This document shows, piece by piece, positions 1-12,172 of a stretch of DNA of 64,000 nucleotides. This stretch comes from an uncultured Pseudomonadales bacterium. GTDB taxonomy: Bacteria; Pseudomonadota; Gammaproteobacteria; Pseudomonadales; Azotimanducaceae. Position 1 is the stretch's first letter; each line of letters opens with the position of its first letter. The DNA lies in contig CAZRBP010000001.1 of assembly GCA_964598305.1 (NCBI GenBank), forward strand, positions 22,501-86,500, in the 5' to 3' direction. The position numbers and the translations under genes were made by a program. The notes under the pieces were generated by a model. That model was not told where the DNA came from. It saw only the letters and a list, made by a program, of their open reading frames with translations, and searched no databases.

Positions 1-827
1 CCATGCGCAAAACCGACCTCGTAGTAGACGCCGCCCCGAGCCCCCGCCTCCCCGTGTGTGAAATCGGCGACAAGAAATCTGGACCTCCTGATCTCCGCAA
101 CAATCTCATCATCTATTCGGCCCACGTGCTCCTGCTCATCTATGACAACTGGCTCATATCCCGATTGCCTGATAGCTAGCTTAATGCCCTTGTCCCTCGC
201 ATCCCGCATCGACGGATCGAACCACATTGCCACAAACGCCCTTGATGATGCCGAGGCGTTTTGCTCCAGTGCCTCCAGGTGCGCGTAGCCCCGGAACGTC
301 AACGCGCATTCCTGCGCCGGATTATTGATGCCGTGGCGGTCAATTAGGTCTTGGTCACTTAGGTAGCCTAGGAGATATTCGAAGTCCTCTGAACCGATGC
401 AGCCGGAGTGTGCGAGAAGCTCGTAGAAGGTTCTTTCCGCATCGGTCAGGGACATCCCAATGTTCTCAGCAGTGCCAAATGTAAACTCAAAGGATATGCG
501 GGTTCCCAAAACTGACGATCTGCGCGAGACGTACTTGAGGAGTCCGTCAGCTCGCCTAAAAACGCTCGGATCCCTCCACCTCGTTGCCTCGTCGACGGTA
601 GCCCATGAGATTTCAGGGCAGCGCTCGCCGAGCGCCCGTTGCTCAACGAGCCATGTTGTAAGCCGCGCTTTCAGATGCTCGTCATGCTTGTTCAGCCCTG
701 GCTCCGCAGATCCGGAAATGAAATACATTCCCCCGGCTCGAGGGGAATCAAAGAGGCGCCCGTCCCTGCCTGTTGGGAGTTCGGTGGCCGATGTCCCCCA
801 AATTGCGCATTTAGCGCTCTCTAGCAT
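1..827 (-). CDS. Partial CDS (C-terminus lies beyond window edge): unknown N-terminal region fused to a nucleoside 2-deoxyribosyltransferase/TIR-like Rossmannoid domain
   Basis: Absent from the ORF track because it has no stop in the window. Hand translation of the minus strand from ATG 827-825 (in-frame TAG at 833-831) gives MLESACAIWG..FISGSAEPGLNKHDEHLKARLTTWLVEQR... It ends ..RAFVAMWFDPSMRDARDKGIKLAIRQSGYEPVVIDEQEHVGRIDDEIVAEIRRSRFLVADFTHGEAGARGGVYYEVGFAHG, a pattern typical of NDT-like/TIR-like nucleotide-processing domains. An alternative internal ATG lies at 455. Confidence 0.55.
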   Translation of the reverse strand, partial: MLESAKCAIWGTSATELPTGRDGRLFDSPRAGGMYFISGSAEPGLNKHDEHLKARLTTWLVEQRALGERCPEISWATVDEATRWRDPSVFRRADGLLKYVSRRSSVLGTRISFEFTFGTAENIGMSLTDAERTFYELLAHSGCIGSEDFEYLLGYLSDQDLIDRHGINNPAQECALTFRGYAHLEALEQNASASSRAFVAMWFDPSMRDARDKGIKLAIRQSGYEPVVIDEQEHVGRIDDEIVAEIRRSRFLVADFTHGEAGARGGVYYEVGFAH

Positions 828-1203
828 GCTCTATTGCTCGCCACCGAACTACCTAGAATTCCACCATTCCAATGCGCGTAGTCTTGTGGCGACCTGCTTT
901 CCTGCTAGCGTACAGCGGGCTTGGACGCTGCATACTACGGCTCCACCACCCCACAACAGTAGCTTCTTGACGCCCGTTGCACAGCCCGCGCTTCAGTGGC
1001 ACCAAACGCTTCTTTTCGCGGTTCCCGAAGGTCACAACTACTTCCCTTTGCGTCGATCAGTTAGCCTATCAACCGATCATGGTTGAAACAACTCGCTTCT
1101 CGACGCTGTACGGCGCAACACGAATCTACGTGCTGCTCGACGTGCGCCATTCGGTCAGGGAGCCATCGTTCAGGCGGGTCGGTCTAGGGCTAGGAAGGAT
1201 TGA

Positions 1204-2121
1204 TCACACCGTACCGCCAATCTCCAACCCCTCAATTGTGCTGAACACCTCAGCATAGCGCTGACGCTGCGCCTCCATCCAATCGATGAGTTCGTCCCAA
1301 CGTGTACCCTGTTGAACGGCAATTTCCTGCCAAGTCGTGTAGTAGTAGCCTCGGCTGGTCGATTGGTTGGGGCCGAGGGCTTGTTCGAGAACGTCGGCAT
1401 GCTTGGACATGAAGGGCGCGAGATGCTCGCTGTCGGCCCCCATCCGGCCGCGCAAGAACATGCCGGACGTCTTGCTGCCCACATACATTGACAGCACAAC
1501 CTCCCCGTCGGAAAGCATGGGAACCCAGACGTTCGAGTCGCGCGTAGGCGCGAACACGCCTGGGTGTCTCTCCAAGTAGCGGTTCCAAAACTGGCGCCTC
1601 AGTCGTGTCAACTTGGATTCGGCGGTAGCGGTTCTGTCTCGGAGGGTGATGTCCCAGTTGTTCGGCTGCTCAACGACATCAAACACTGGCGCAAAGGGAC
1701 TGTCCTCGATGCGCACCACGCGAAGCCGGACGGCGAAGAAGGCGAATTCATCGTTCGTATGCTCATTGAGCCATCGGACGGCGGACCGATGGGCTGCTTG
1801 GAAGTCCCGTGCGACCCAGACCACAGTTTTGGCCTCAATTCCAGCCAGATACGTGAGCACCTGCCCCAAGTGCCTATGGTCGGAAACCTCGAGTTGGTTC
1901 TCGATGACGACCCGATCACCCGTTCTGGAGTCCTCGGCGAGGATATCCACCGAGAAGTTGTCGACCGCATCTTCAGTGGCAATGGCCTTCAACTCGATCC
2001 CCAGTGCGTCGGAGAGAAAATCGAGGTGGTCGAAGAGCCAGGGGGTGAAGTCACGGGCCTCATCCGGCCACGCCTCACGGACCGGAGCGTCTGTGAGTCG
2101 GGTAAAGCGGGTTGTCGTCAT
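1204..2121 (-). CDS. PD-(D/E)XK nuclease-like N-terminal domain + DUF4268-type C-terminal domain protein
   Basis: The ORF track gives 1204..2160. I moved the start to ATG 2121 (MTTTRFTRL), which overlaps the stop of the upstream small ORF in ATGA. DILAEDSRTGDRVVIENQLEVSDHRHLGQVLTYLA is a restriction-endonuclease-fold core as I recall it from DUF4268-family proteins. Confidence 0.65.
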   Translation of the reverse strand: MTTTRFTRLTDAPVREAWPDEARDFTPWLFDHLDFLSDALGIELKAIATEDAVDNFSVDILAEDSRTGDRVVIENQLEVSDHRHLGQVLTYLAGIEAKTVVWVARDFQAAHRSAVRWLNEHTNDEFAFFAVRLRVVRIEDSPFAPVFDVVEQPNNWDITLRDRTATAESKLTRLRRQFWNRYLERHPGVFAPTRDSNVWVPMLSDGEVVLSMYVGSKTSGMFLRGRMGADSEHLAPFMSKHADVLEQALGPNQSTSRGYYYTTWQEIAVQQGTRWDELIDWMEAQRQRYAEVFSTIEGLEIGGTV

Positions 2122-2387
2122 GGGACTTCGTCGGCACCCCGTACGAGGACGTACGGCCATAGGCGGCCGTCGGTCGCCTTCCAGACGACATCATGCGCCA
2201 TGCTCTTCAGCCGACTCATGGCGTCCGGGTCGAAAGCGTCGGCCTCAATCTCGACCACGGCCCAAACCCATGCAGCGGAATCGTCGGTGGCGTCCAGCCC
2301 GTCCTCGACAACCCAAGATTGCACGGGGGCCGGCAAGCCTTCGGGCGCCTCAAGTTCGGATCGAATTTTGGCGGTGTCAGCGATCAT
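2118..2387 (-). CDS. Acidic 89-aa hypothetical protein, copy 1 (paralog of 7567..7839)
   Basis: This intact ORF reads MIADTAKIRSELE..VQSWVVEDGLDATDD..WKATDGRLWPYVLVRGADE. By eye it is ~4/5 identical to the 90-aa ORF at 7567..7839. Its stop overlaps the start of the DUF4268 gene (ATGA). I recognise no family motif. Confidence 0.65.
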   Translation of the reverse strand: MIADTAKIRSELEAPEGLPAPVQSWVVEDGLDATDDSAAWVWAVVEIEADAFDPDAMSRLKSMAHDVVWKATDGRLWPYVLVRGADEVP

Positions 2388-2417
2388 GACGTTAACTTAC
2401 GCTTCGGATAGGCTATG
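2126..2417. repeat. Direct repeat copy 1 (~290 bp) covering the acidic small ORF plus ~30 nt of its upstream leader
   Basis: It aligns along its whole length with 7584..7867 in the same orientation. I saw scattered substitutions and one 6-nt indel. Confidence 0.85.
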
Positions 2418-2482
2418 TTCAAACAGAGGACCAGCAACAGTGAAGATGAGAGTAAGACACGAAATTTGTTTCTCTCGTGCCC

Positions 2483-5400
2483 TCAGCGCCACGGAGCCAT
2501 GGTGGTGGCCGAAATTGGGGTATGAAACAGCGTTCTCTTGCGTCTATCGCGATCCTTCTTGATGGCATGGTCCAATCCCGTAGAACCAAGGACTCTCGCA
2601 AGTGTCCTCCGATACGGCGGATCAATGGCCGGGTCGATGTGTTTGAACCACGCAATGAACCGCCGGTCGCAATTCTCCTCCACACGCTTCCACACGTGCC
2701 GGGCTGCACGCTCGTCGATATCTGTCTGCCAGAACTCATGAAGCGCCGCTCGCGCTTGCACATTTCGCTGATAGTCCTGACGGCTGGCTTCCAAGACCGT
2801 GCGAAGCCATGGATCCATGGGCGGATTCAATTCAAGGATATTCCACTGCTCGTCGGCCTCCGCCGATTGGTCGCAGAGACCAAGCAATGTGATCGCCTTC
2901 GCGAGATCAACCGGACGCGGCTTTGACTCAAGGGCTTTGATCCGCTCCAGCAGCCAGTCCACGCGGTCGTGCTTGTGGGAGTAGTGGGAGATCCCGAGCA
3001 AGTCATCGTCCGTAGCAGCCAACGACAAACACTCGTCACACGCAGCGTCACTGGATTCGGATCGGGCCAATTCAAATGGAAACCCTTGGTACGAATCCCT
3101 CGAAAAGATGCTGGATTTGACTCCCGTCTGTATCGCAGCGAATGCTGATAGCGCAACTTCTGGAGCCTTGTCCTTCAGAGCCCTCATCGTGTCCATGACT
3201 GGAAAATTGTTCATCAGAGCTTTGTCGGCGCCGCGCCCTGCATTCTCGGTCCATCTCGACAGCCACTCTTCGACCGGATCTACGCCGCGCTCAACCAACA
3301 TCTTGACACAGTCCAGATAATGGATGTACCAGTAGCGAGGCATGCTCCAAGCGGTGGCGGCTGTTATCGCCTGCAGTTCACCCTCCAAGTAAGCAGCGAA
3401 TGCATCCAGCGCAGCGTCCGAAGAGGCACCCCATTTAACCCTTAGCGCCACGCTTTCATCGGCAAGTTCCGTTTTCGGGACGAGCTCCGGGCGAATCGAC
3501 TCAAGTTGCACTAGGGCGGTGGTTCGAGCGAGTTCATCTAGCTTGTCGGCCCAATTGTTGCCGGAGACCGGCGACACATAGGCCGATTCTGCGAACCGCG
3601 TCAAAGCATCCAAGTGTTGGCCTTCCGAAGCAATGAAGAGTGCTCGTCGTCGAATCTCCCTGTCTTCGTGAGTTGTCAGCATCGGCAGGAAATCCAGCCT
3701 TGCAATCGCTGCATCCTCAAGGCGTTGACCCACATAATCCAGCCAAAGAACGAGACCCTCTCGCGTTGCGCTGGAGATGTCCAGTTGGGCCAAGTCATCC
3801 TCTCCGGGCAAGCGGCAAACTAGCTGCCACTTATCACCCAGCGAGGCGTACGGAGCCGACAGGATTAGGGGAGCCTGTTGTGCGGGTTTCGCGTCGTACA
3901 ACCGCAGCCGCAAGGCACTGATTCCCAACTTGTTGCCCCGTTCCGCGTCTTCCCCCCTGGCCGCTGCCCGTTGTTCTTGATCGAACGCTGCGGCCAGAAG
4001 AGAACGGGATGTCGGGGTGATGATGGTCAGGATTTGCCGGAAGTTGTTCAGCAGCAGGTCGATTTCTCTGCCGCCGGGAGGCAACCCTTGCGCAATCAAG
4101 GTGTCGATCAGCTCAGCTCCCGATTGCGCGTCGACTTGTTTCCAGCCCTCTGGCGCGAGGTAGTCGACCACGGAGTCCAACGGGCTTCTTCTCTCCTTGT
4201 CCTTGGCGCCATCTCGTGCGATTGGTACGGCTGGGCTCTCCCCTTTGTCGTCCATTAAACCGACTGCGTTCTCTCGGGCAACGTCACTCAAGGCTTTGCG
4301 GAGCGTCGATGCGGCTTTCAGGGGAATGATGTGCCCGCACTGCTCGAGTCGACAGATCACCCTACCCAGTGCTTCATCCGCCTCGGACGGGTCCTCGGAG
4401 TTGATCCGGAGCATCCAAGCCACGTCATCCAGTTCGTGGGTCGATTCCATCACCGCCCGGCTCAGCGCCCATGCCTCTATGGCCGCCACGTAAGGCGCTC
4501 TCGCCAAATAGGAACATACTGCCACCGCACAACGAGCGAGGTAGTTCCAATTGCCTTCGACTTGGAACCGAACAGGCGCGAAATCCTTGGCTTGTGGAGA
4601 ACGCATCCAACGTTTGCAGCGAGACCTCACATTTCCTGCATTCCTGTTGTCCCCCCTTAACCTGATGTTGCCGTTCTGCCCCGGAGCGAAAGCGTCAAGC
4701 GCTGGTTCGGACCACGCTGTTCCCAACCATTCGACTAGCTTGGGCAGCAGAGCCTCGTGGAATCTGGGGTACTGCGCAGCGTTTGCCAGCGTTTTGATCA
4801 GCACTTCGTCCTTCATACCGCTTGTGCGATCGCTCAGCCAGTCGCGTTCCGCGACTCCTAGGACTAGATCCGGGTCAAGTCCAGCTAGTCGCCAAAGGTC
4901 TTCAAAGTCCGCACTGGAAAAATTCTGTTCATTGAGCCACCTGCACATCAGTTCGTACCGCAGCTGGCTGTCGGTTCCCTGCTCCACTAAGGCGATTGTT
5001 GTAGCTGCTCTGAGGATTTTCGAACCGAGGCTATGCGCCTTTAACGGGTCCAGGAACTCGGCAATGGTCCCGGCGAAGTCCGTGCGGGAGCCCTGCTTGA
5101 GTTCGGACAGTAGGGCGGCTCCAAGCACGTAATGCACTCTGTCCGTGTTGAGTTTGAACCTGTCGGGATCGGCTCCTGCCGTGAACCATCCCCCAGACGT
5201 CAACTGGAGGACAGCGGCCTCTAGATTACGTCCCGCCGACCCGCTGTCGGCCGAAAGCGTTGCCATGATGTTTCGACGGGTCACGGCGCGTTCCACATCA
5301 TTTCGGAGATCTCGCCCGAGATTCGCGATGAACACTCTCATGCGAGCATCATCCATCCCTACCCTTGGCCCCTGTCGGCTAATCCTGTCCTTCCAATCCT

Positions 5401-6829
5401 CGTAGATGACACGCTCAGCAGTGATGTCCCCGCTGTCCGCGAGTGCTTTGTGGTGTTTCAGTGCGATCGCTGCGAGGCGAGGCACGCGCATTAACTCCAA
5501 CACCGGCTTCGTCAGCACATCACGGTTAACGGTCATTGCTGTCAACAGTTCATCAAGTTCCGCGTCGGAAAAGCCCTCTACGAGAATCTCGATTGGTTTA
5601 GGTTCCAGGTTGGATAGGCAGTAAAGGTCGTCGCGCCACCGATTTGGCCAGCAACTGAGGACGAGCTTGTACATCCCCCCTAGATTGTCTTCCAGAAGCG
5701 GTTGCGCCCAGTCCGCCCAGTCACTGAACAGAAAGTTCTGGTTCAGGCCATCCACAATCACAAGGATTCGAGTGGATTCCCTTCCGCTCCTCTCCCAAAG
5801 ACTAAGCCGACGGAGCCAAAACTCTGCAGATCCGGGACGAGCCTGTTGCGAAAGCGCCTGCGCAATGTCGGCTCGGGCATCGGTTCCCTGAACGGATGTG
5901 GCAGGCAGGTACACGATCAAGGGCGAAGCTGGTTCCAGCGGGTTGATCAACTCATTGCACCAGTCCAGCGCAGCCCATGACTTTCCGGTGCCCTCGTCGC
6001 CTACAAGTGCCGCCATGGGGCTCCTTTTGTCAGCAAACCACGCGTTCAGCTGTTGACTGACACCAGCGCGGCGGATGACGGTGGACTCGCTGTCTCGCAG
6101 GTTGTGGTGGCCGCCCAGACGAGACTTAGCTTTGCGCAACGACGATTGCCCATCGTGCAACCAACGTTGGCACTGTTCGCGGCAACTGGCGTAGCCGACG
6201 GCCGGAGCCACCAAACGATCACGCCACATCGACACCTTCGATTCAAACTGATTGCTCTTCCGAATCAATTCCAAGGCTTGGTGAGTCTTGGACGACTGGT
6301 CTAGGCAGTTTCCACAGGCTTGAGGTGCTGCAGCAGAAATCGCAGCCAGATCGCACAGAGCGTTACTGTGTTCAGGCCAGTCCAATACGAGGACGTCAAT
6401 TCCCAATAGTTCTCCGTGCCTGACAAGCGCCTCCCGAAGAGAGCTGTCAACCTGCCGGGTCGACGCTAGCAACCAAAGGTCGGGAGGCGTTGTGAGGGTT
6501 GACGCTTCAGTCACCTTGGACAGCAATGCATCCTGCGGGAGGCTCGTACTCCGGCTGTACCTTTTGGCTTCAAGACTTGCCTTTACCAAGTTGCAAGGGT
6601 CGGAGCGAACGTCGCTACCCCCTTGGAGCCCGGACTTGACCACATGAAAGGGCTGCCCAGAGAGTTCGCTGAGTGCGGCCGCAAGAAAACCCTCGAATCC
6701 CGACACCCCGGTTGGCTTTAGTCCGTAGATCTGCTTCCAGAGCAGTTCCTGCGCATCCGCTAAGTCCATTGTCGCGCCCAAACGGCCAGCAACAAGCGTC
6801 GCATGGAATCCAGTTCTGTGCCAGTGCAT
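2483..6829 (-). CDS. STAND-class P-loop NTPase with N-terminal Mrr/PD-(D/E)XK-like nuclease domain and ~900-aa helical C-terminal region (Avs/NLR-like sensor candidate)
   Basis: A 1448-aa ORF with an alternative ATG at 6769 (MDLADAQ). Residues ~45-90, FEGFLAAALSEL..QGGSDVRS..ASLEAKRY, fit the Mrr_cat-type D..ExK pattern. Walker A is LVGDEGTGKS (nt 5978-6001). Walker B-like RILVIVDGLN lies ~75 aa further. A long Leu/Ala-rich C-terminus follows. Confidence 0.8.
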   Translation of the reverse strand: MHWHRTGFHATLVAGRLGATMDLADAQELLWKQIYGLKPTGVSGFEGFLAAALSELSGQPFHVVKSGLQGGSDVRSDPCNLVKASLEAKRYSRSTSLPQDALLSKVTEASTLTTPPDLWLLASTRQVDSSLREALVRHGELLGIDVLVLDWPEHSNALCDLAAISAAAPQACGNCLDQSSKTHQALELIRKSNQFESKVSMWRDRLVAPAVGYASCREQCQRWLHDGQSSLRKAKSRLGGHHNLRDSESTVIRRAGVSQQLNAWFADKRSPMAALVGDEGTGKSWAALDWCNELINPLEPASPLIVYLPATSVQGTDARADIAQALSQQARPGSAEFWLRRLSLWERSGRESTRILVIVDGLNQNFLFSDWADWAQPLLEDNLGGMYKLVLSCWPNRWRDDLYCLSNLEPKPIEILVEGFSDAELDELLTAMTVNRDVLTKPVLELMRVPRLAAIALKHHKALADSGDITAERVIYEDWKDRISRQGPRVGMDDARMRVFIANLGRDLRNDVERAVTRRNIMATLSADSGSAGRNLEAAVLQLTSGGWFTAGADPDRFKLNTDRVHYVLGAALLSELKQGSRTDFAGTIAEFLDPLKAHSLGSKILRAATTIALVEQGTDSQLRYELMCRWLNEQNFSSADFEDLWRLAGLDPDLVLGVAERDWLSDRTSGMKDEVLIKTLANAAQYPRFHEALLPKLVEWLGTAWSEPALDAFAPGQNGNIRLRGDNRNAGNVRSRCKRWMRSPQAKDFAPVRFQVEGNWNYLARCAVAVCSYLARAPYVAAIEAWALSRAVMESTHELDDVAWMLRINSEDPSEADEALGRVICRLEQCGHIIPLKAASTLRKALSDVARENAVGLMDDKGESPAVPIARDGAKDKERRSPLDSVVDYLAPEGWKQVDAQSGAELIDTLIAQGLPPGGREIDLLLNNFRQILTIITPTSRSLLAAAFDQEQRAAARGEDAERGNKLGISALRLRLYDAKPAQQAPLILSAPYASLGDKWQLVCRLPGEDDLAQLDISSATREGLVLWLDYVGQRLEDAAIARLDFLPMLTTHEDREIRRRALFIASEGQHLDALTRFAESAYVSPVSGNNWADKLDELARTTALVQLESIRPELVPKTELADESVALRVKWGASSDAALDAFAAYLEGELQAITAATAWSMPRYWYIHYLDCVKMLVERGVDPVEEWLSRWTENAGRGADKALMNNFPVMDTMRALKDKAPEVALSAFAAIQTGVKSSIFSRDSYQGFPFELARSESSDAACDECLSLAATDDDLLGISHYSHKHDRVDWLLERIKALESKPRPVDLAKAITLLGLCDQSAEADEQWNILELNPPMDPWLRTVLEASRQDYQRNVQARAALHEFWQTDIDERAARHVWKRVEENCDRRFIAWFKHIDPAIDPPYRRTLARVLGSTGLDHAIKKDRDRRKRTLFHTPISATTMAPWR

Positions 6830-6940
6830 TCGGGCGGTGACAAATCTAGTGCAAGCTCCTGCCGAATGGTCTGCGGGAGCCGTTTAGCGTTCCTCTTGAA
6901 AGTGCCCGTGGGTTCGAGAAAGCCCTGCAGGGGCGGCGGA

Positions 6941-7450
6941 CTACTCGTCATGAAGCGTCGCGAGCCACTCCGCAGAAGAGGTGAACGTGCGGGGTTCGGG
7001 AGAGTCGGCCCTGTCCCTGACACCGTCGCCAATGAGCACAGCCCATCGGACTTCCTGCATGGTAGCTACAGTCCACGCGTACAGGTGCTCTAGCCGATCG
7101 AGCTCGCGGAACACGTCGTGCGACGACGAAGTACGCAAATCGGCGAAAGCGTCCCGCAACTGCTGGAGTTCTTCAAGGCGATGCTTGAAGTAGCGTTCCC
7201 CCTGCTCCATAGCCTGGACGCCTTCGCTATCGGGATCGACGGGCGATTTGGGATCATGCTCTTTCATGGCTTCAGACAGTACGCTGCCTGCCCGATCAAC
7301 CACAGGGAGAAGACTGTCGTGCCCCTCGCGGAGTCCCTGCGCCTGGGCATCGAGCAGTTCGGCAGAGACAGGCATACCGAGGTCGGGACCCGACACGAGC
7401 GCGGGTAGCGCGCGGCTGATGTCACGTATGGTGTTCGATTGAGCCAGCAT
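6941..7450 (-). CDS. 169-aa hypothetical, predicted all-helical protein (possible HEPN-like Rx6H motif)
   Basis: An intact ORF with a GAGGGG SD 8 nt upstream of ATG 7450. It lies between acidic ORF copy 2 and the STAND gene on the same strand. RELDRLEH sits at aa 115-122. I recognise no other motif. Confidence 0.55.
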   Translation of the reverse strand: MLAQSNTIRDISRALPALVSGPDLGMPVSAELLDAQAQGLREGHDSLLPVVDRAGSVLSEAMKEHDPKSPVDPDSEGVQAMEQGERYFKHRLEELQQLRDAFADLRTSSSHDVFRELDRLEHLYAWTVATMQEVRWAVLIGDGVRDRADSPEPRTFTSSAEWLATLHDE

Positions 7451-7566
7451 TCAAAAGCCCCTCAGGGGACGATTCCAGCAGACACCCACAATAAACCGGA
7501 TTCGCGCCGGATTCGCGTTCTTGATGGCGAGGAGCGTCGCCTGCGCGAGAAGTTCCTTGGAAAGGC

Positions 7567-7839
7567 TCACGAAGCGACTTCGGCTTCGTCGGCTCCCCGT
7601 ATGAGGACGTACGGCCACAGGCGACCGTCGGTCGCCTTCCAGACGACATCACGCGCCATGCTCTTCAGCTGACTCATGGAGTCCGGGTCGAAAGCGTTGG
7701 TCTCGACCACGGCCCAAATCCATACGGCGGGATCGTCGGTGGCATCCAGCCCGTCCTCGACAACCCAAGATTGCACGGGAGTCGGCAGGTCTTCGAGTCC
7801 CTCAAGCTCGGATCGGATTTTGGCGGTGTCAGCGATCAT
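7567..7839 (-). CDS. Acidic 90-aa hypothetical protein, copy 2 (paralog of 2118..2387)
   Basis: This intact ORF reads MIADTAKIRSELEGLEDLPTPVQSWVVEDGLDATDD..WKATDGRLWPYVLIRGADE. It is the first gene of the minus-strand block. Confidence 0.65.
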   Translation of the reverse strand: MIADTAKIRSELEGLEDLPTPVQSWVVEDGLDATDDPAVWIWAVVETNAFDPDSMSQLKSMARDVVWKATDGRLWPYVLIRGADEAEVAS

Positions 7840-7867
7840 GGTGCTAGCTTACGCCTCGGATAGCATG
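7584..7867. repeat. Direct repeat copy 2 (~285 bp) covering the acidic small ORF plus upstream leader
   Basis: It aligns with 2126..2417. The leader CTATCCGA(A/G)GCGTAAG(T/C)TA upstream of the ATG is conserved in both copies. Confidence 0.85.
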
Positions 7868-8030
7868 CATTCTAGGCACCTCCCTTCGCCGCCCATGGCC
7901 GTTGCTCTCCCAGTGGGTGAATTGGAGCCAAGTCCCCATCGGCAACGGCACGGCCTTGAACGCCACTGCCGGTAGGCTCCCCCACATCCACACAGCCCGT
8001 AGTTGTCCCCTCACTCGGGTTGGGCATACC

Positions 8031-8657
8031 ATGCGCCCGTATAAAGGCAGAGCCAACCTAACCATGCGCCATGCTGCCAAATCGGACTTCGTGCCGGTCA
8101 GGATAGGCCCCACCAGCGCGCGGCAGTACATAACCGGGCTGCAAGCGCTGAACCTCATCGACCCGGAATTCGAGTCGAGCGGAGATTGGCACATGCAGGG
8201 CAGTTGGTTCGTGCCCGCCGAAGGCGTCCATCCCAGGGCCTACGAGGCGCTGCTGGCGAACAAGGCCAGGTTTGGATACGTGCTCGCCACGCCGGTGGAA
8301 CTGCTCGGCGAGGATCGGCTATTCGACGCCCGCCCCTCGCTGCAGCGCCTAGGCCATCCCGAGGGCGATTCAACCGAGCCCGTATGGGCAGCCCACCACG
8401 ACCGGGCCATTGTCGATGGCGCCTGGAAGTGGCTTCATCCCAACCCGTCCCTCTTTCCCGGCCCCTACTACGGCCCGGCGGTGGCCAACTGGCTTTGGAC
8501 GAATGCCCAATTCGCGCATCTGCACCGGCTCGCCCGCAAGGTTGAGAGCACCCTGTCCGGGAACAGACAGAAATTGTGGGCCACATGGATGCGCGACCTG
8601 ACGCCGGACGCCGAATGGGAAAGAGGCACCTACCTTAAAGGCACACGTGATCACTGA
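8031..8657 (+). CDS. Hypothetical protein (208 aa from ATG 8031; alternative ATG 8064)
   Basis: The ORF track gives 7902..8657. Third-codon positions are strongly G/C-biased, consistent with coding. It is divergent from the minus-strand block. I recognise no motif. Confidence 0.5.
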   Translation: MRPYKGRANLTMRHAAKSDFVPVRIGPTSARQYITGLQALNLIDPEFESSGDWHMQGSWFVPAEGVHPRAYEALLANKARFGYVLATPVELLGEDRLFDARPSLQRLGHPEGDSTEPVWAAHHDRAIVDGAWKWLHPNPSLFPGPYYGPAVANWLWTNAQFAHLHRLARKVESTLSGNRQKLWATWMRDLTPDAEWERGTYLKGTRDH

Positions 8658-9000
8658 AGGCACCGCCGGGAAGGCGAGTTCCACGCCGCTGCTCGATCAC
8701 TGATTCGGTTAGGTCTCCCTCAGCGCCAATGTCCCCTACGACAACAGCCTCAAGCCGACCGCAGTACCGCATGCGCACAACAGCGTCGGCCAAGACCGCA
8801 GACATTGCCCGGCCCGCTGTGAGACATTGGCCTGTCCGCAGCCGCAAAAAGGAGCGGGCCGACTTGGACATCCCGACATCAAAATCTGGAAAGCGCAGTG
8901 CAATCAAAGGCTTGAATTCATCCTAAGCCCATCTCAAGTTACTCGGAAAAAAGCGTCATCGCCTACATCTTTGTTAGCGCCCCCCTGCCAACATGGGGGC

Positions 9001-10038
9001 ATGCCACACGACGCACTCAGCAAGACCCTGTTCGCCCTGCCGCTGGTGGTGGCCGACCTCCTGCGCCTCATCGCCCGCGCCTGGGTCCACCTGCTCGACC
9101 TCGGCTCCCTCAGGCGCATGAGCGCCGAGCACCCGTCGGCCGACCTCTCCCAGCGCGTCGGCGACCTCGCCTGGCGGGCCTGCTTCCGGGCCGGGGAGTT
9201 GGCTGACGGGTCGCGCCCTTGGCTGTTGCAGCCAATAGAGTGCCAATCCACGCACGACTCGGGGATGGGGGGACGGCAGGCAGAGTACCTCGGTCGCCAT
9301 CTTCAGGCGCTGGAGAGTGACGGAACTCTGGCGAAGGAGGGCGAGGAGCCTCGGGTGCTGTCCGTGGTGGTTTACGACGGGGAGCGGCGGTGGCCCAGGC
9401 TGGCCGCCCCAGCAGGCATGCCCTCCCTCCTGCAGCCCGGCGGCTACGTGGTGCTTGACGCGGGCGCCGGGGAGTTGGAGGATTGGCCTCGTGGCAACCG
9501 GGTGTCTTCGTGGGTGCGGCTTCTGAGGGCGCGCAGCCCCGAGGAGCTGCTGGGACGCCTTGTAGATGCCATTCGGGAGTTTCCGGAGGCGCCGGACCAG
9601 GCCTTCCGGGAGGCGCTGCACACTTGGGCGCAGGCGCTACTCACGCGGATGGCGCCGGACGCGCATGCGCTGCCACCGCTGTTGGAGTTGGAGAACGGAC
9701 AGGGAGAACGGGACATGACGACGCTGCTTGAAGCGAACCTGAGCAAGTGGAGGGCGGGAGTGGTCCAGGAGGGCATCGCCCAAGGCATGGAACGAGGCAT
9801 GGAACGAGGCATCGAGCGCGGCGAGGCGCGGGCGCGGGCGGACCAGCGGGCGCAGCTGCGGCGCCAAGCGGGCCGCAAGTTTGGCGGCGGGGCGGCGGAG
9901 CGTCTGTCGGCGCTGATCGAGGGCGAATCGGACCCGAAGCGCCTAGCCGAGGTCTTGGACTGGATTATCGACTGCAGCACCGAGGACGAGTTTCTTGCCC
10001 ACGCTGAGCGCTGGGTCAGGCCCGGAGTTTCGCGATAG
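9001..10038 (+). CDS. Rpn-family recombination-promoting nuclease / putative transposase (PD-(D/E)XK, YhgA-like)
   Basis: The start was moved to ATG 9001 (MPHDALSKTLF), matching the family-typical N-terminus HD..fK.lF. The core reads RVGDLAWRACF .. IECQSTHDSGMGGRQAEYL. The C-terminus is a repetitive EGIAQGMERGMERGIERGEARARA tail. Confidence 0.75.
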   Translation: MPHDALSKTLFALPLVVADLLRLIARAWVHLLDLGSLRRMSAEHPSADLSQRVGDLAWRACFRAGELADGSRPWLLQPIECQSTHDSGMGGRQAEYLGRHLQALESDGTLAKEGEEPRVLSVVVYDGERRWPRLAAPAGMPSLLQPGGYVVLDAGAGELEDWPRGNRVSSWVRLLRARSPEELLGRLVDAIREFPEAPDQAFREALHTWAQALLTRMAPDAHALPPLLELENGQGERDMTTLLEANLSKWRAGVVQEGIAQGMERGMERGIERGEARARADQRAQLRRQAGRKFGGGAAERLSALIEGESDPKRLAEVLDWIIDCSTEDEFLAHAERWVRPGVSR

Positions 10039-10285: not shown

Positions 10286-10516
10286 ATGCGCTACGTATCC
10301 TTCATCCACCGGAGCAAGGCTGGCTATGGCGTCAGCTTCCCCGACATTCCGGGCTGCGTGGCGGTCGGGGACACAGTCGACGACGCGATTCGCCACGGAA
10401 GCGAAGTCTTGGCCTTCCACGTGGAGGGGCTTGCCGAGAATGGCGAGGCGATTCCGGAGCCACGCACAATTGAGGCCATCAAGGCCGAGGATACCAACGG
10501 GGTGACGGCATCCTAG
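10286..10516 (+). CDS. HicB-family antitoxin-like protein (UPF0150), no adjacent HicA
   Basis: MRYVSFIHRSKAGYGVSFPDIPGCVAVGDTVDDAIRHGSEVLAFHVEGLAENGEAIPEP matches the HicB N-terminal pattern. A strong SD (AAGGAGGA) lies upstream. Confidence 0.7.
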   Translation: MRYVSFIHRSKAGYGVSFPDIPGCVAVGDTVDDAIRHGSEVLAFHVEGLAENGEAIPEPRTIEAIKAEDTNGVTAS

Positions 10517-10524
10517 GCGGAAGT

Positions 10525-11823
10525 TCAAGGATTGGTGTGAATGGTGGATCCAGGATGCCGCTCCGGGATTGCGGGCGGGTTCTCCAGTCCCTCGAAAGCC
10601 AGGTCGTTAACGAACACTTGGCGCCATAGCTGCCGGCGCTGGCCTTCATCCATGCCCGCCTCGTTGCACACGTCCTCCCATCCCGACACAACCGCTGAGA
10701 CCTGCCGGTCGATGATGGCGCGGGCATCCTGCGGCGAAAGCTGGAACTTCGGTGCGGCGGCAAGGCAAAGCGAAAGCTGGCTTCGCCGCGCTTGGCCGTG
10801 GATCAGCATTCCCTGGGATGCTTCCCGCCCAACACGGGATTGGGGGCAGATGTCGTACGCGGGGGTGAGGGACAGGGCGCGTCCGTCCCAGAATGCCGCA
10901 TGGTTGCGCGCGTGGTCGTCGGTGTTCCCGCAGAGGATGTTGAAGGTCATGCGCCCGAACAATTCCTTGAGGTTGCGCCGCGGCGACTGGGCGCCTTGGC
11001 GCAGGGCGTCGGCCAGCTCCTCGTAGGACGCGTATTGCGCGAACATCTCATCGAGGTTGAGCAGGGACAAGCCAGAGAGCATGGCGCGGCGCGTCCACCC
11101 TCGGTCGGTTCGTTCGCGGTCGAAGCGTTTGACGAACAGGACATCCTTGCGCATGGCCTTGACCAGCTTGACGTCGGCAACGTCAAGGCCCGCCTTTTGC
11201 GCTAAGCGCATGGCTATGTACTCGGCCTTGATCACGTTGTGTGTGTCGCTGGTGGATGAGAACTTGGCGATGTGCTTGGCGTCCTCATGGGTGATGAGTG
11301 CCTTGGGCCTCGCGCCGCCGACTGAGGCGCTGTGGAGCAGTGCGCGGTCCAGCGCCGGCGGCAGGATGATGCCCTTTTCCACAGACTCAGCCGCATTGAC
11401 AAGCTGCTCAAGGGTGACTCCGGCGTCGTCTCGGGGGACATGGCGTCGCATTGATTGCTGGAAGTCCAAGGCGCCGGGGCGGTCTGACCCTGACTTGAGC
11501 AGGTAGTCTGCCTCCCGCAGGCCCTCATCCGCATTGCCGAGGGAGTGGTTAATGACGCGGCGCCCCCAAGCGTCGGGGGCGCTATCCCGTAGGGCGTTGG
11601 CAAGCAACAGCGGCGGCTCGGGTTCGATGGTTCCGGCGCGAAGGGGAAGCTCGGTGGGGTGAAGGGCTATTGCGTCGGCCCTGGCTAGGTAGTCAGGCGC
11701 GTAGGCAAAGGCCATCGGGCCTCCAGGCTCCTGCTCGACAAGCGTGCCCGCCGCGATGGGGTCGGTTCGGGAAGGTAGCCAAACCCAAACGGCGACTGGT
11801 CTTGGGTCCGCTTTTGTGGCCAT
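10525..11823 (-). CDS. hipA: Type II toxin HipA-family serine/threonine kinase
   Basis: The start was moved to ATG 11823 (MATKADPRPVAVWVW), 10 nt after the hipB-like stop. Motifs present are SVGGARPKAL, KFS..SDTHNV.KAEY and NTDDHARNHA. Confidence 0.85.
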   Translation of the reverse strand: MATKADPRPVAVWVWLPSRTDPIAAGTLVEQEPGGPMAFAYAPDYLARADAIALHPTELPLRAGTIEPEPPLLLANALRDSAPDAWGRRVINHSLGNADEGLREADYLLKSGSDRPGALDFQQSMRRHVPRDDAGVTLEQLVNAAESVEKGIILPPALDRALLHSASVGGARPKALITHEDAKHIAKFSSTSDTHNVIKAEYIAMRLAQKAGLDVADVKLVKAMRKDVLFVKRFDRERTDRGWTRRAMLSGLSLLNLDEMFAQYASYEELADALRQGAQSPRRNLKELFGRMTFNILCGNTDDHARNHAAFWDGRALSLTPAYDICPQSRVGREASQGMLIHGQARRSQLSLCLAAAPKFQLSPQDARAIIDRQVSAVVSGWEDVCNEAGMDEGQRRQLWRQVFVNDLAFEGLENPPAIPERHPGSTIHTNP

Positions 11824-11833
11824 GGGAACCCTC

Positions 11834-12172
11834 TTAGTAGTCGTGGGAAATCTCGGGTGCAGGGCGCCCGCTCCTCTTTGGAAGGAGCGTGAGCATGTCC
11901 TGCGCTTGTTTGAGGTGCACAGCCAAGCGTGGGCTGTCCGGCACGAAGAGCGGAACGCCCACCAGGGTTGCGGCCTCAAGGACGGCGCCGACCGAAACGG
12001 TTGGCGACCCGCCCTCGATCTTCCGAACCGTGCTTCGGCATACGCCCAAACGTTCAGCTAGGTTGGCCTCAGACCACTGGCGCTTCTTGCGGGCAATGCG
12101 AATCTGACTTGCCAGCATGTGCAGGGCGGCTTCCGTCACCGTGGAGTAAGTGCGTAGGTTTGCGGCTGCCAT
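11834..12172 (-). CDS. hipB: HipB-like XRE-family HTH antitoxin/transcriptional regulator
   Basis: A 112-aa protein with an HTH segment (WSEANLAERLGVCRSTVRKIEGG), immediately upstream of hipA. Confidence 0.75.
   Translation of the reverse strand: MAAANLRTYSTVTEAALHMLASQIRIARKKRQWSEANLAERLGVCRSTVRKIEGGSPTVSVGAVLEAATLVGVPLFVPDSPRLAVHLKQAQDMLTLLPKRSGRPAPEISHDY

Follow-up and report, generated by a model that had tools for sequence, protein, structure and literature searches.

The first 8,000 nucleotides (nt) of a 64,000-nt stretch of an uncultured Pseudomonadales bacterium (the window, by which we mean that whole stretch) contain two direct repeats, each carrying a small gene for an acidic protein. 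They bracket a gene for a 169-residue protein, here called type-B, and a gene for a large STAND-like nucleoside triphosphatase (NTPase). Each repeat is probably a copy of the first gene of a two-gene module, together with a short conserved upstream motif; the two are paralogues that have diverged. The explanation we favour, with moderate confidence, is that both copies are orphaned antitoxin-like genes of a HEPN-type toxin-antitoxin (TA)-like module in a recombination-prone defence island of low GC content. In relatives the small gene is followed by a gene for a basic, HEPN-like protein, which we call the partner. In the window the partner is lost at both copies, and each copy is joined to unrelated defence genes.

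The original prediction, made by eye from the sequence, described end-to-end direct repeats with one 6-nt indel, and both a repeat finder and a global alignment confirm them at 2126-2417 and 7584-7867. The alignment holds 256 matches, 28 mismatches and 8 gap columns, which gives an identity of 90.1% excluding gaps (256/284 aligned bases) rather than the roughly 85% estimated earlier. The repeat finder splits the pair into two in-register families, 2126-2256/7584-7714 (90%) and 2249-2411/7701-7863 (88%), because the indel shifts the register. The copies start 5458 nt apart and are perfectly identical over at most 35 nt in a row, and the list of open reading frames (ORFs) places every gene in 1204-7839 on the minus strand. 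The two small genes are as follows.

2118..2387, minus strand: copy 1 of the small acidic gene, 89 amino acids (aa), isoelectric point (pI) 4.1, intact ORF
7567..7839, minus strand: copy 2 of the small acidic gene, 90 aa, pI 4.05, intact ORF, repeat segment 7584-7867

The acidic ORFs of 89 and 90 aa are thus intact as described, and the count of 18 Asp/Glu against 7 Lys/Arg given for copy 1 is correct and holds for each copy. Sequence common to both starts about 24-28 nt 5' of each ATG, so that the reported duplication of some 30 nt of leader also stands. Similarity does not run to the stop codons, as had been claimed, but ends a few codons short of them: copy 1 terminates in ADEVP, whereas copy 2 and all close relatives in the family alignment terminate in ADEAEVAS. 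The unit of copy 1 that is homologous to relatives spans 2126-2446, including 59 nt upstream, and is 89% identical to L013 (handles of this form denote loci on other contigs). No third copy of the small gene was found elsewhere in the window. A repeat search of the window revealed no inverted-repeat or att-like structure or integrase flanking the repeat unit, ARAGORN found no tRNA or tmRNA that would mark an integration site, and an Rfam scan of the whole window at gathering thresholds returned no RNA family. As such, the repeat is no more than ordinary paralogy within an island prone to recombination.

What the repeats are copies of becomes apparent from related loci, which fall into two sets: contigs with close relatives of the small gene, and 25 loci of species-representative genomes, all of them metagenome-assembled genomes (MAGs). 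In some 40 related loci, most of them in sponge-associated MAGs of several phyla and one in a Planctomycetota MAG, the small gene is the first of a two-gene operon, the second gene encoding a basic protein of 168-170 aa with a pI of 9.5-10.7 (against 4.1 for the small protein). By tblastn this partner is recognisable after the small gene in almost all of 43 loci. Its GTG, ATG or TTG start overlaps the small-gene TGA by 4 nt (GTGA/ATGA) in nearly all of the 33 non-redundant loci, and in about 30 loci its N-terminus is VSLPRDLLAQA. The pairing extends to small proteins only about 30% identical, those of L051 (a Planctomycetota MAG) and L055: the NTGA overlap is kept in both, and their partners match the canonical partner profile with an hhalign probability of 100%. 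Interchangeable cargo had been expected downstream of the acidic gene in related genomes; replacements do occur at some loci, but a single HEPN-like partner is the norm.

The partner has a sub-threshold but consistent similarity to HEPN proteins, on which basis we describe it as HEPN/UPF0332-like. In the PDB, the partner profile matches only HEPN/UPF0332 proteins, albeit weakly (E 0.1-0.6). Its YYALFH aligns with YYAMFH of AF0298 (2hsb) and its RHEADYD with RNRSDYD (9xbd) and REESDYG (2hsb), and the residues R116-H-x-A-D120-Y121 are invariant. In one lineage (L007-L012), a further gene of 150 aa lies about 50 nt 3' of the partner (e.g. L007 4098-4550) and has a weak HEPN match (E 0.037); it may be a second HEPN-like gene of the operon.

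The two genes decay unequally. The small gene is intact in 32 of 33 non-redundant loci and the partner in only about 16 of 33, the partner counts coming from MAG and metagenome assemblies in which some frameshifts may be assembly errors. Broken partners carry a frameshift, an internal deletion or a split by an inserted gene, are truncated after 9-117 codons, or are replaced, and they often leave a VSLPRDLLAQA stub. A small gene that is kept while its partner decays is the pattern expected of a harmful downstream gene with a protective gene before it. We infer that the operon works in the manner of a toxin-antitoxin pair, the small protein being the one that protects. At L015 (10270-12192), a 414-aa gene is inserted within the partner and the small gene is intact.

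The small protein belongs to a family without annotation. Neither it nor 82 family members have a real match in Pfam, NCBIfam or PADLOC, and a PDB sequence profile search with the small protein gave only weak tautomerase noise. Close relatives form 10 clusters in a word-indexed search; an exhaustive profile search widens the family to 206 clusters at E<=1e-3, clusters being counted at 50% identity. Members occur in MAGs of Pseudomonadales, Alphaproteobacteria, Acidobacteria, Spirochaetia, Gammaproteobacteria and Planctomycetota, and several of the 25 representative-genome loci are recognisably sponge-associated bins. In NCBI, the Planctomycetota member and the gene next to it both bear the name 'hypothetical protein'. 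AlphaFold, run on an alignment of 82 sequences, gives a confident model (pLDDT 92, pTM 0.82) with an alpha-beta-beta-alpha-beta order. Foldseek matches this model only to generic ferredoxin-like domains (TM 0.5-0.68), including acyl-CoA synthetase and CDF transporter C-terminal domains; we rejected these matches as uninformative, none being specific. No family member (0/82) matches a nucleotidyltransferase (NTase) family, and the GSx10DxD motif is absent from the small protein.

The acidity of the protein had prompted the suggestion that it might be a DNA mimic. Nothing found here speaks for that suggestion: the fold is generic, neither known DNA-mimic proteins nor NTase structures are among its 50 best structural matches, and 5 of the 82 members are basic (the family median pI is 4.6). 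Two of the basic members, at L051 3001-3770 and L055 188-963 (pI 9.1-9.3), still have a HEPN-like partner with a 4-nt overlap, and acidity is therefore not essential to the pairing.

The upstream sequence is conserved as well. In most relatives and in copy 1, TTGAAC-N17-TAAGYT ends 6 nt before the ATG, and about 30 relatives carry TTGAAC ... GCGTAAGCT at a fixed distance from it.

2394..2422, minus strand: upstream motif of copy 1, TTGAAC-N17-TAAGTT, followed by 6 nt and the ATG
~7846-7874, minus strand: the equivalent at copy 2, TAGAAT ... TAAGCT

The spacing is promoter-like and suggests a promoter that would give a leaderless mRNA. A scan for sigma-70 and terminator consensus sequences called a promoter at neither copy, the -10-like hexamer matching at 3/6 positions.

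At copy 2, the fate of the partner can be read directly. The original prediction saw only the 169-aa ORF and the STAND gene between the copies and overlooked a third-gene remnant of about 120 nt at 7570-7451.

7451..7570, minus strand: partner-gene remnant, its GTG overlapping the copy 2 TGA; reads VSLSKELLAQATLLAIKNANPAR, then unrelated sequence; stop at 7453-7451
7457..7470, minus strand: terminator-like GC hairpin and T-run (predicted function), directly 5' of the type-B start codon
6941..7450, minus strand: type-B, 169 aa, pI 4.7, in frame with the remnant; family of 84 clusters with conserved length
2483..6829, minus strand: STAND-like NTPase, 1448 aa, with a P-loop/Walker A GDEGTGKS

The remnant keeps the first ~20 partner codons, and tblastn of partner proteins matches 7570-7502/7520. 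The rest of the partner gene was not found elsewhere in the window, and the stub is present only at copy 2, with no partner remnant at copy 1. Type-B was considered as a diverged HEPN partner, a candidacy prompted by the frame of the stub, an apparent RTSSSH motif and a BLASTP E of 0.015. This was rejected: the motif R is not conserved in the type-B family, hhalign against the canonical partner gives a probability of 0.3%, and there is no HEPN fold match. The AlphaFold2 model of type-B has three long helices (pLDDT 76) and found no fold match in the PDB.

The same arrangement of small gene, partner stub and type-B recurs in L043 at 91-96% identity, with no STAND gene after it. In L022 (10261-11172), the small gene overlaps, by GTGA, a single long downstream ORF with the partner VSLP at its start and, at its end, a type-B-like domain with 30% identity to the window type-B (E 9e-14). 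Since L022 and the window/L043 arrangement share only 30% identity here, type-B has come to occupy the partner slot at least twice. A fragment in L039 (786-922) consists of part of the partner stub and the first 20 type-B codons, is 87% identical to window 7396-7543 and sits 1.3 kb upstream of an intact small-gene/partner pair on the same contig. The hairpin sequence is conserved in L043 and in this fragment.

The STAND-like protein has sub-threshold matches to AAA_22 (E 2e-4, 22 bits, cutoff 27) and NACHT (E 2.6e-3, 18 bits, cutoff 26.7; profile 4-162/167) and none in PADLOC or in a PDB sequence search. Its single relative, 45% identical and metagenomic, came from one metagenome scan and lies in an unrelated neighbourhood without repeats, small gene or type-B. 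The 169-aa and STAND genes are not a conserved pair. By eye, the first ~90 residues of the STAND protein (6560-6829, minus strand) show a D...EAK pattern (GGSDV ... SLEAKRY) reminiscent of a PD-(D/E)xK nuclease, with no profile match.

Copy 1 has met a different end, being fused to the start of a candidate defence gene.

1204..2121, minus strand: PDC-S11 / DUF4268-type candidate defence gene, 305 aa, its start ATG overlapping the copy 1 TGA
2126..2134, minus strand: recombination junction, 9 nt ACGAAGTCC common to the small-gene and PDC-S11 homologies

This gene had been named a DUF4268 nuclease. A Pfam hmmscan of the 305-aa protein gives no match, DUF4268 included, but the protein matches the PADLOC profile PDLC04911 (PDC-S11) with an E of 5.6e-86 (residues 2-296 on profile 2-311/318), and among its 885 homologues some distant ones are named DUF4268/PF14088. 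The PDC-S11 DNA block (1200-2134) is 93% identical to L048 and 87% to L049. Its homology begins 13 nt upstream of the ATG, at 2134, and the small-gene homology ends at 2126. The junction reads ...CTACGAAGCCCCATGACG in L048, ...GCCGACGAAGCCGAAGTC at copy 2 and ...GCCGACGAAGTCCCATGACG in the window, and both parents contain ACGAAGTCC, as ...ACGAAGCC... at the small-gene 3' end and as ...ACGAAGCCCCATGACG in the PDC-S11 5' untranslated region (UTR). The 9-nt overlap has the signature of a microhomology-mediated illegitimate recombination. The ATGA is PDC-S11 sequence of native origin that happens to be read in the small-gene frame, not an inherited coupling signal. Among the PDC-S11 homologue loci, the junction was not seen in any other contig. 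Window 1-1200, downstream of PDC-S11, has no convincing gene but merely ORFs that overlap one another in several frames; L049 stays homologous as far as 1121, L048 only to 1200.

The two copies also differ in their history. Copy 2 and its flanks have 96% DNA identity to L043 and 92-93% to L039/L013, and the 59 nt upstream of copy 1 match only L013. Synonymous divergence (dS) separates copy 1 from every other allele, copy 2 included, by 0.18-0.25, against 0.02-0.17 among the other alleles. Copy 1 is therefore an older paralogue or an imported allele rather than a recent tandem duplicate. It is also a mosaic, with a segment EIEADAFDPDAMSRL specifically common to L043, which points to some gene conversion.

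It could be argued that both copies are functionless relics, decaying leftovers of dead modules whose apparent constraint is sampling noise from about 25 substitutions. The partner is indeed lost at both, and copy 1 has a replaced C-terminus and four private substitutions (L15P, T20A, P37S and I82V), of which L15P and P37S fall at clade-conserved positions. Decay of this kind was to be recognised by a dN/dS near 1; the value between the window copies is 0.33-0.36, and it is 0.2-0.4 against four alleles. Both ORFs have stayed intact despite a dS of about 0.2, as have orphan small genes in many loci with a broken partner. These values indicate that both copies remain constrained by purifying selection and are not freely decaying, and we think it very unlikely that they are mere relics.

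A second possibility follows the first reading of the original prediction, that the small gene anchors cargo that can be interchanged. Together with its leader, it would serve as a portable landing pad and promoter for defence cargos swapped by recombination between copies. The downstream slot does hold different genes: type-B (window and L043), a fusion resembling type-B (L022), an inserted gene (L015), PDC-S11 (copy 1) and others (L025/L026). The 35 nt of perfect identity would in principle be enough for RecA-dependent deletion or exchange, copy 1 is a mosaic allele, and type-B-unit fragments and truncated Transposase_31 copies have been reshuffled among L039, L043 and the window. However, one HEPN-like partner is overwhelmingly predominant, and the partner stubs, at 9-117 codons, imply break points without site specificity. 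The microhomology joint with PDC-S11 is a single case, the unit is not flanked by an integrase or by att-like or inverted-repeat structures, and the deletion variant that had been foreseen, with the small ORF directly before PDC-S11, appears in no database match. We consider cassette exchange unlikely. The variable slot and the microhomology joint agree with the anchor reading, but the fixed partner at almost all of the ~40 loci does not; the slot is variable because that partner has been repeatedly destroyed or displaced at non-specific break points, and not through cassette anchoring.

Alternatively, each copy could be a dedicated regulator or inhibitor of its present neighbours, copy 2 controlling type-B and/or STAND and copy 1 controlling PDC-S11, perhaps by direct binding or by coupled translation. 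In favour of this, neither ORF is broken and purifying selection acts on both, the copy 1 stop shares an ATGA with the PDC-S11 start, and type-B follows the small gene in two divergent lineages. These neighbours nevertheless do without the small gene elsewhere. What precedes the two nearest relatives of PDC-S11 (92% and 87%) is a gene of 267 aa, not the small gene; PADLOC treats PDC-S11 as a candidate system of one gene, and the ATGA is part of the native PDC-S11 5' end. Relatives of type-B are mostly solo genes: those in L044-L047 stand by themselves without any trace of the small gene upstream, and three long contigs with solo type-B have neither the small gene nor the STAND gene nearby. The one STAND relative lacks both the small gene and type-B, and a terminator-like hairpin separates copy 2 from type-B. 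The second reading of the original prediction, in which each nuclease module needs the inhibitor in its own copy, finds no support in these relatives for the genes now present, and we regard dedicated control as very improbable. An inhibitor role for the small protein is plausible only towards the missing HEPN-like partner.

A broader scheme would make the small protein a portable neutraliser or gatekeeper with its own leaderless promoter, re-paired with unrelated effectors: HEPN-like proteins, type-B in two independent lineages and, coupled here by the ATGA, PDC-S11. The module would then be a plug-in socket by which sponge-symbiont defence islands recruit and tame toxic effectors, and the two copies in the window would be an exchange intermediate. 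We consider this decidedly unlikely.

Several observations weigh against orphaned antitoxin-like genes as the explanation. The partner falls short of the Pfam HEPN threshold (E 8e-4 to 0.17; the best member scores 20.0 bits against a cutoff of 22, and others score 12-16 bits or have no match). The histidine of the canonical Rx4-6H motif is replaced in it (RxxxDY); HEPN proteins with D instead of the motif histidine have been described, the variant being noted for classical HEPN proteins, and HEPN proteins without the motif can still be toxic (PMC3710099). No known antitoxin fold or DNA-binding domain (ribbon-helix-helix, helix-turn-helix (HTH), AbrB or Phd) was found in the small protein. Through its ATGA overlap with PDC-S11, copy 1 could be translationally coupled to that gene and have a regulatory role there. 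The presence of type-B in the partner slot of two divergent lineages hints at a functional link with the small protein, a link that an arrangement left behind by recombination would not need. Assembly errors could inflate the count of broken partners. Finally, the toxicity of the partner and its binding and neutralisation by the small protein are inferred from sequence.

With these points in mind, we propose that the HEPN-like protein acts as a toxin, probably through cleavage or binding of RNA, and that the small protein neutralises it, probably by direct binding, as RnlB does RnlA, rather than by AMPylation, as in systems with a minimal nucleotidyltransferase (MNT). A direct inhibitor is preferred to an MNT-type modifier because the small protein is without nucleotidyltransferase features. 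At copy 2, the partner would have been truncated after about 20 codons, its site now being occupied by type-B and then the STAND-like gene. The allele at copy 1, which is older or foreign and has an upstream region of its own, would have been fused to the PDC-S11 5' UTR by microhomology-mediated illegitimate recombination. The small gene would persist after the loss of the toxin; the orphans may now neutralise a partner encoded elsewhere, or may simply supply a promoter. Because both copies are without the partner and are joined to unrelated defence genes, the succession of repeat, 169-aa gene, STAND gene and repeat is probably a by-product of serial recombination and not a designed cassette.

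The proposed module resembles several known systems without coinciding with any of them. Like HEPN-MNT (HepT/MntA, type VII) and UPF0332 (PF05168; 2hsb AF0298, 9xbd) systems, it is a two-gene operon with a small, putatively protective upstream gene and a downstream helical protein of ~130-170 aa that carries the HEPN signature helices (YYAxFH ... RxxxDY), and it is mobile and patchily distributed in defence and TA islands. Unlike in HEPN-MNT, the upstream gene is not a minimal nucleotidyltransferase, having no NTase Pfam match, no GSx10DxD and no NTase fold. The partner differs from solved HEPN proteins in its score below the Pfam HEPN gathering threshold and in an insertion of ~40 residues. 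In RnlA-RnlB and LsoA-LsoB, which are TA and anti-phage systems, a HEPN effector is neutralised by a directly bound small protein without a DNA-binding domain (PMC3710099, PMC8266594). The same mechanism is proposed for the module here; the small protein resembles RnlB in neither sequence nor fold, the genes are of other sizes and in another order, and RnlA is large and multidomain.

As in type II TA operons, two small, adjacent, co-oriented genes have overlapping or closely spaced stop and start codons, in the relatives as an NTGA overlap (the window retains only the stub at copy 2), but the small protein lacks the DNA-binding domain for autoregulation. Intact antitoxin-like genes that persist after toxin loss are known as orphan antitoxins, and in mosaic defence islands genes of the kinds found here (PDC-S11, STAND NTPase, AbiEi-like, HipBA, HicB) are rearranged by recombination, both homologous and illegitimate, within low-GC surroundings. 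What sets the window apart from both is that the same orphan occurs twice, in direct orientation and 5.5 kb apart, with one copy precisely fused to the start of an unrelated defence gene. Integron-like site-specific cassettes are a poorer comparison: here what is repeated is a coding gene, the break points vary from locus to locus, and the copy 1 junction is one of microhomology.

The repeats thus lead to an unannotated, widespread two-gene module, with about 206 clusters of small proteins in MAGs, many of which come from sponge metagenomes. Among HEPN-type TA systems it represents an undescribed variant, in which a HEPN/UPF0332-like protein is joined to a non-MNT partner of new fold, its function being that suggested by the genes. 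If the pair is a TA system, it would add a new neutraliser fold for the most abundant predicted TA toxin superfamily. It would also offer a clean natural example of toxin loss with the antitoxin kept, and of the microhomology fusion of an antitoxin to a defence gene. The small protein is not a conserved companion of DUF4268/PDC-S11, tempting as that reading is.

The setting of the repeats agrees with their history. GC content is 57-60% in window 1-8000 and 64-68% elsewhere in the window, which is consistent with horizontal acquisition of 1-8000 as a block with PDC-S11, both small-gene copies, STAND and type-B. The locus is bordered by AbiEi-like, Transposase_31, HicB-like and HipA/HTH genes.

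7902-8657, plus strand: AbiEi-like protein, 251 aa (PADLOC AbiEi E 6e-17), with no AbiEii toxin adjacent
8827-10038, plus strand: Transposase_31 (YhgA/Rpn-like) gene, adjoining the locus
10286-10516, plus strand: HicB-like antitoxin (E 5e-18), with no obvious HicA, adjoining the HipBA-type pair
10525-12172, minus strand: HipA kinase (HipA_C E 5e-52) with an overlapping upstream HTH_31 gene, a HipBA-type pair; block 96% identical to L013

Type-B-unit pieces and truncated Transposase_31 copies are arranged differently in L039, L043 and the window, and the region is a recombination hot spot. The position of the AbiEi-like gene is taken by a YbjQ_1 gene in L013 and holds only a 74-aa fragment in L039. 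Transposase_31 genes occur elsewhere, at L013 4121-5134, L039 1288-1797 and L043 2083-2505. Truncated C-terminal copies flank rearranged pieces in L039, L040 and L043, and Transposase_31 may be involved in the shuffling.

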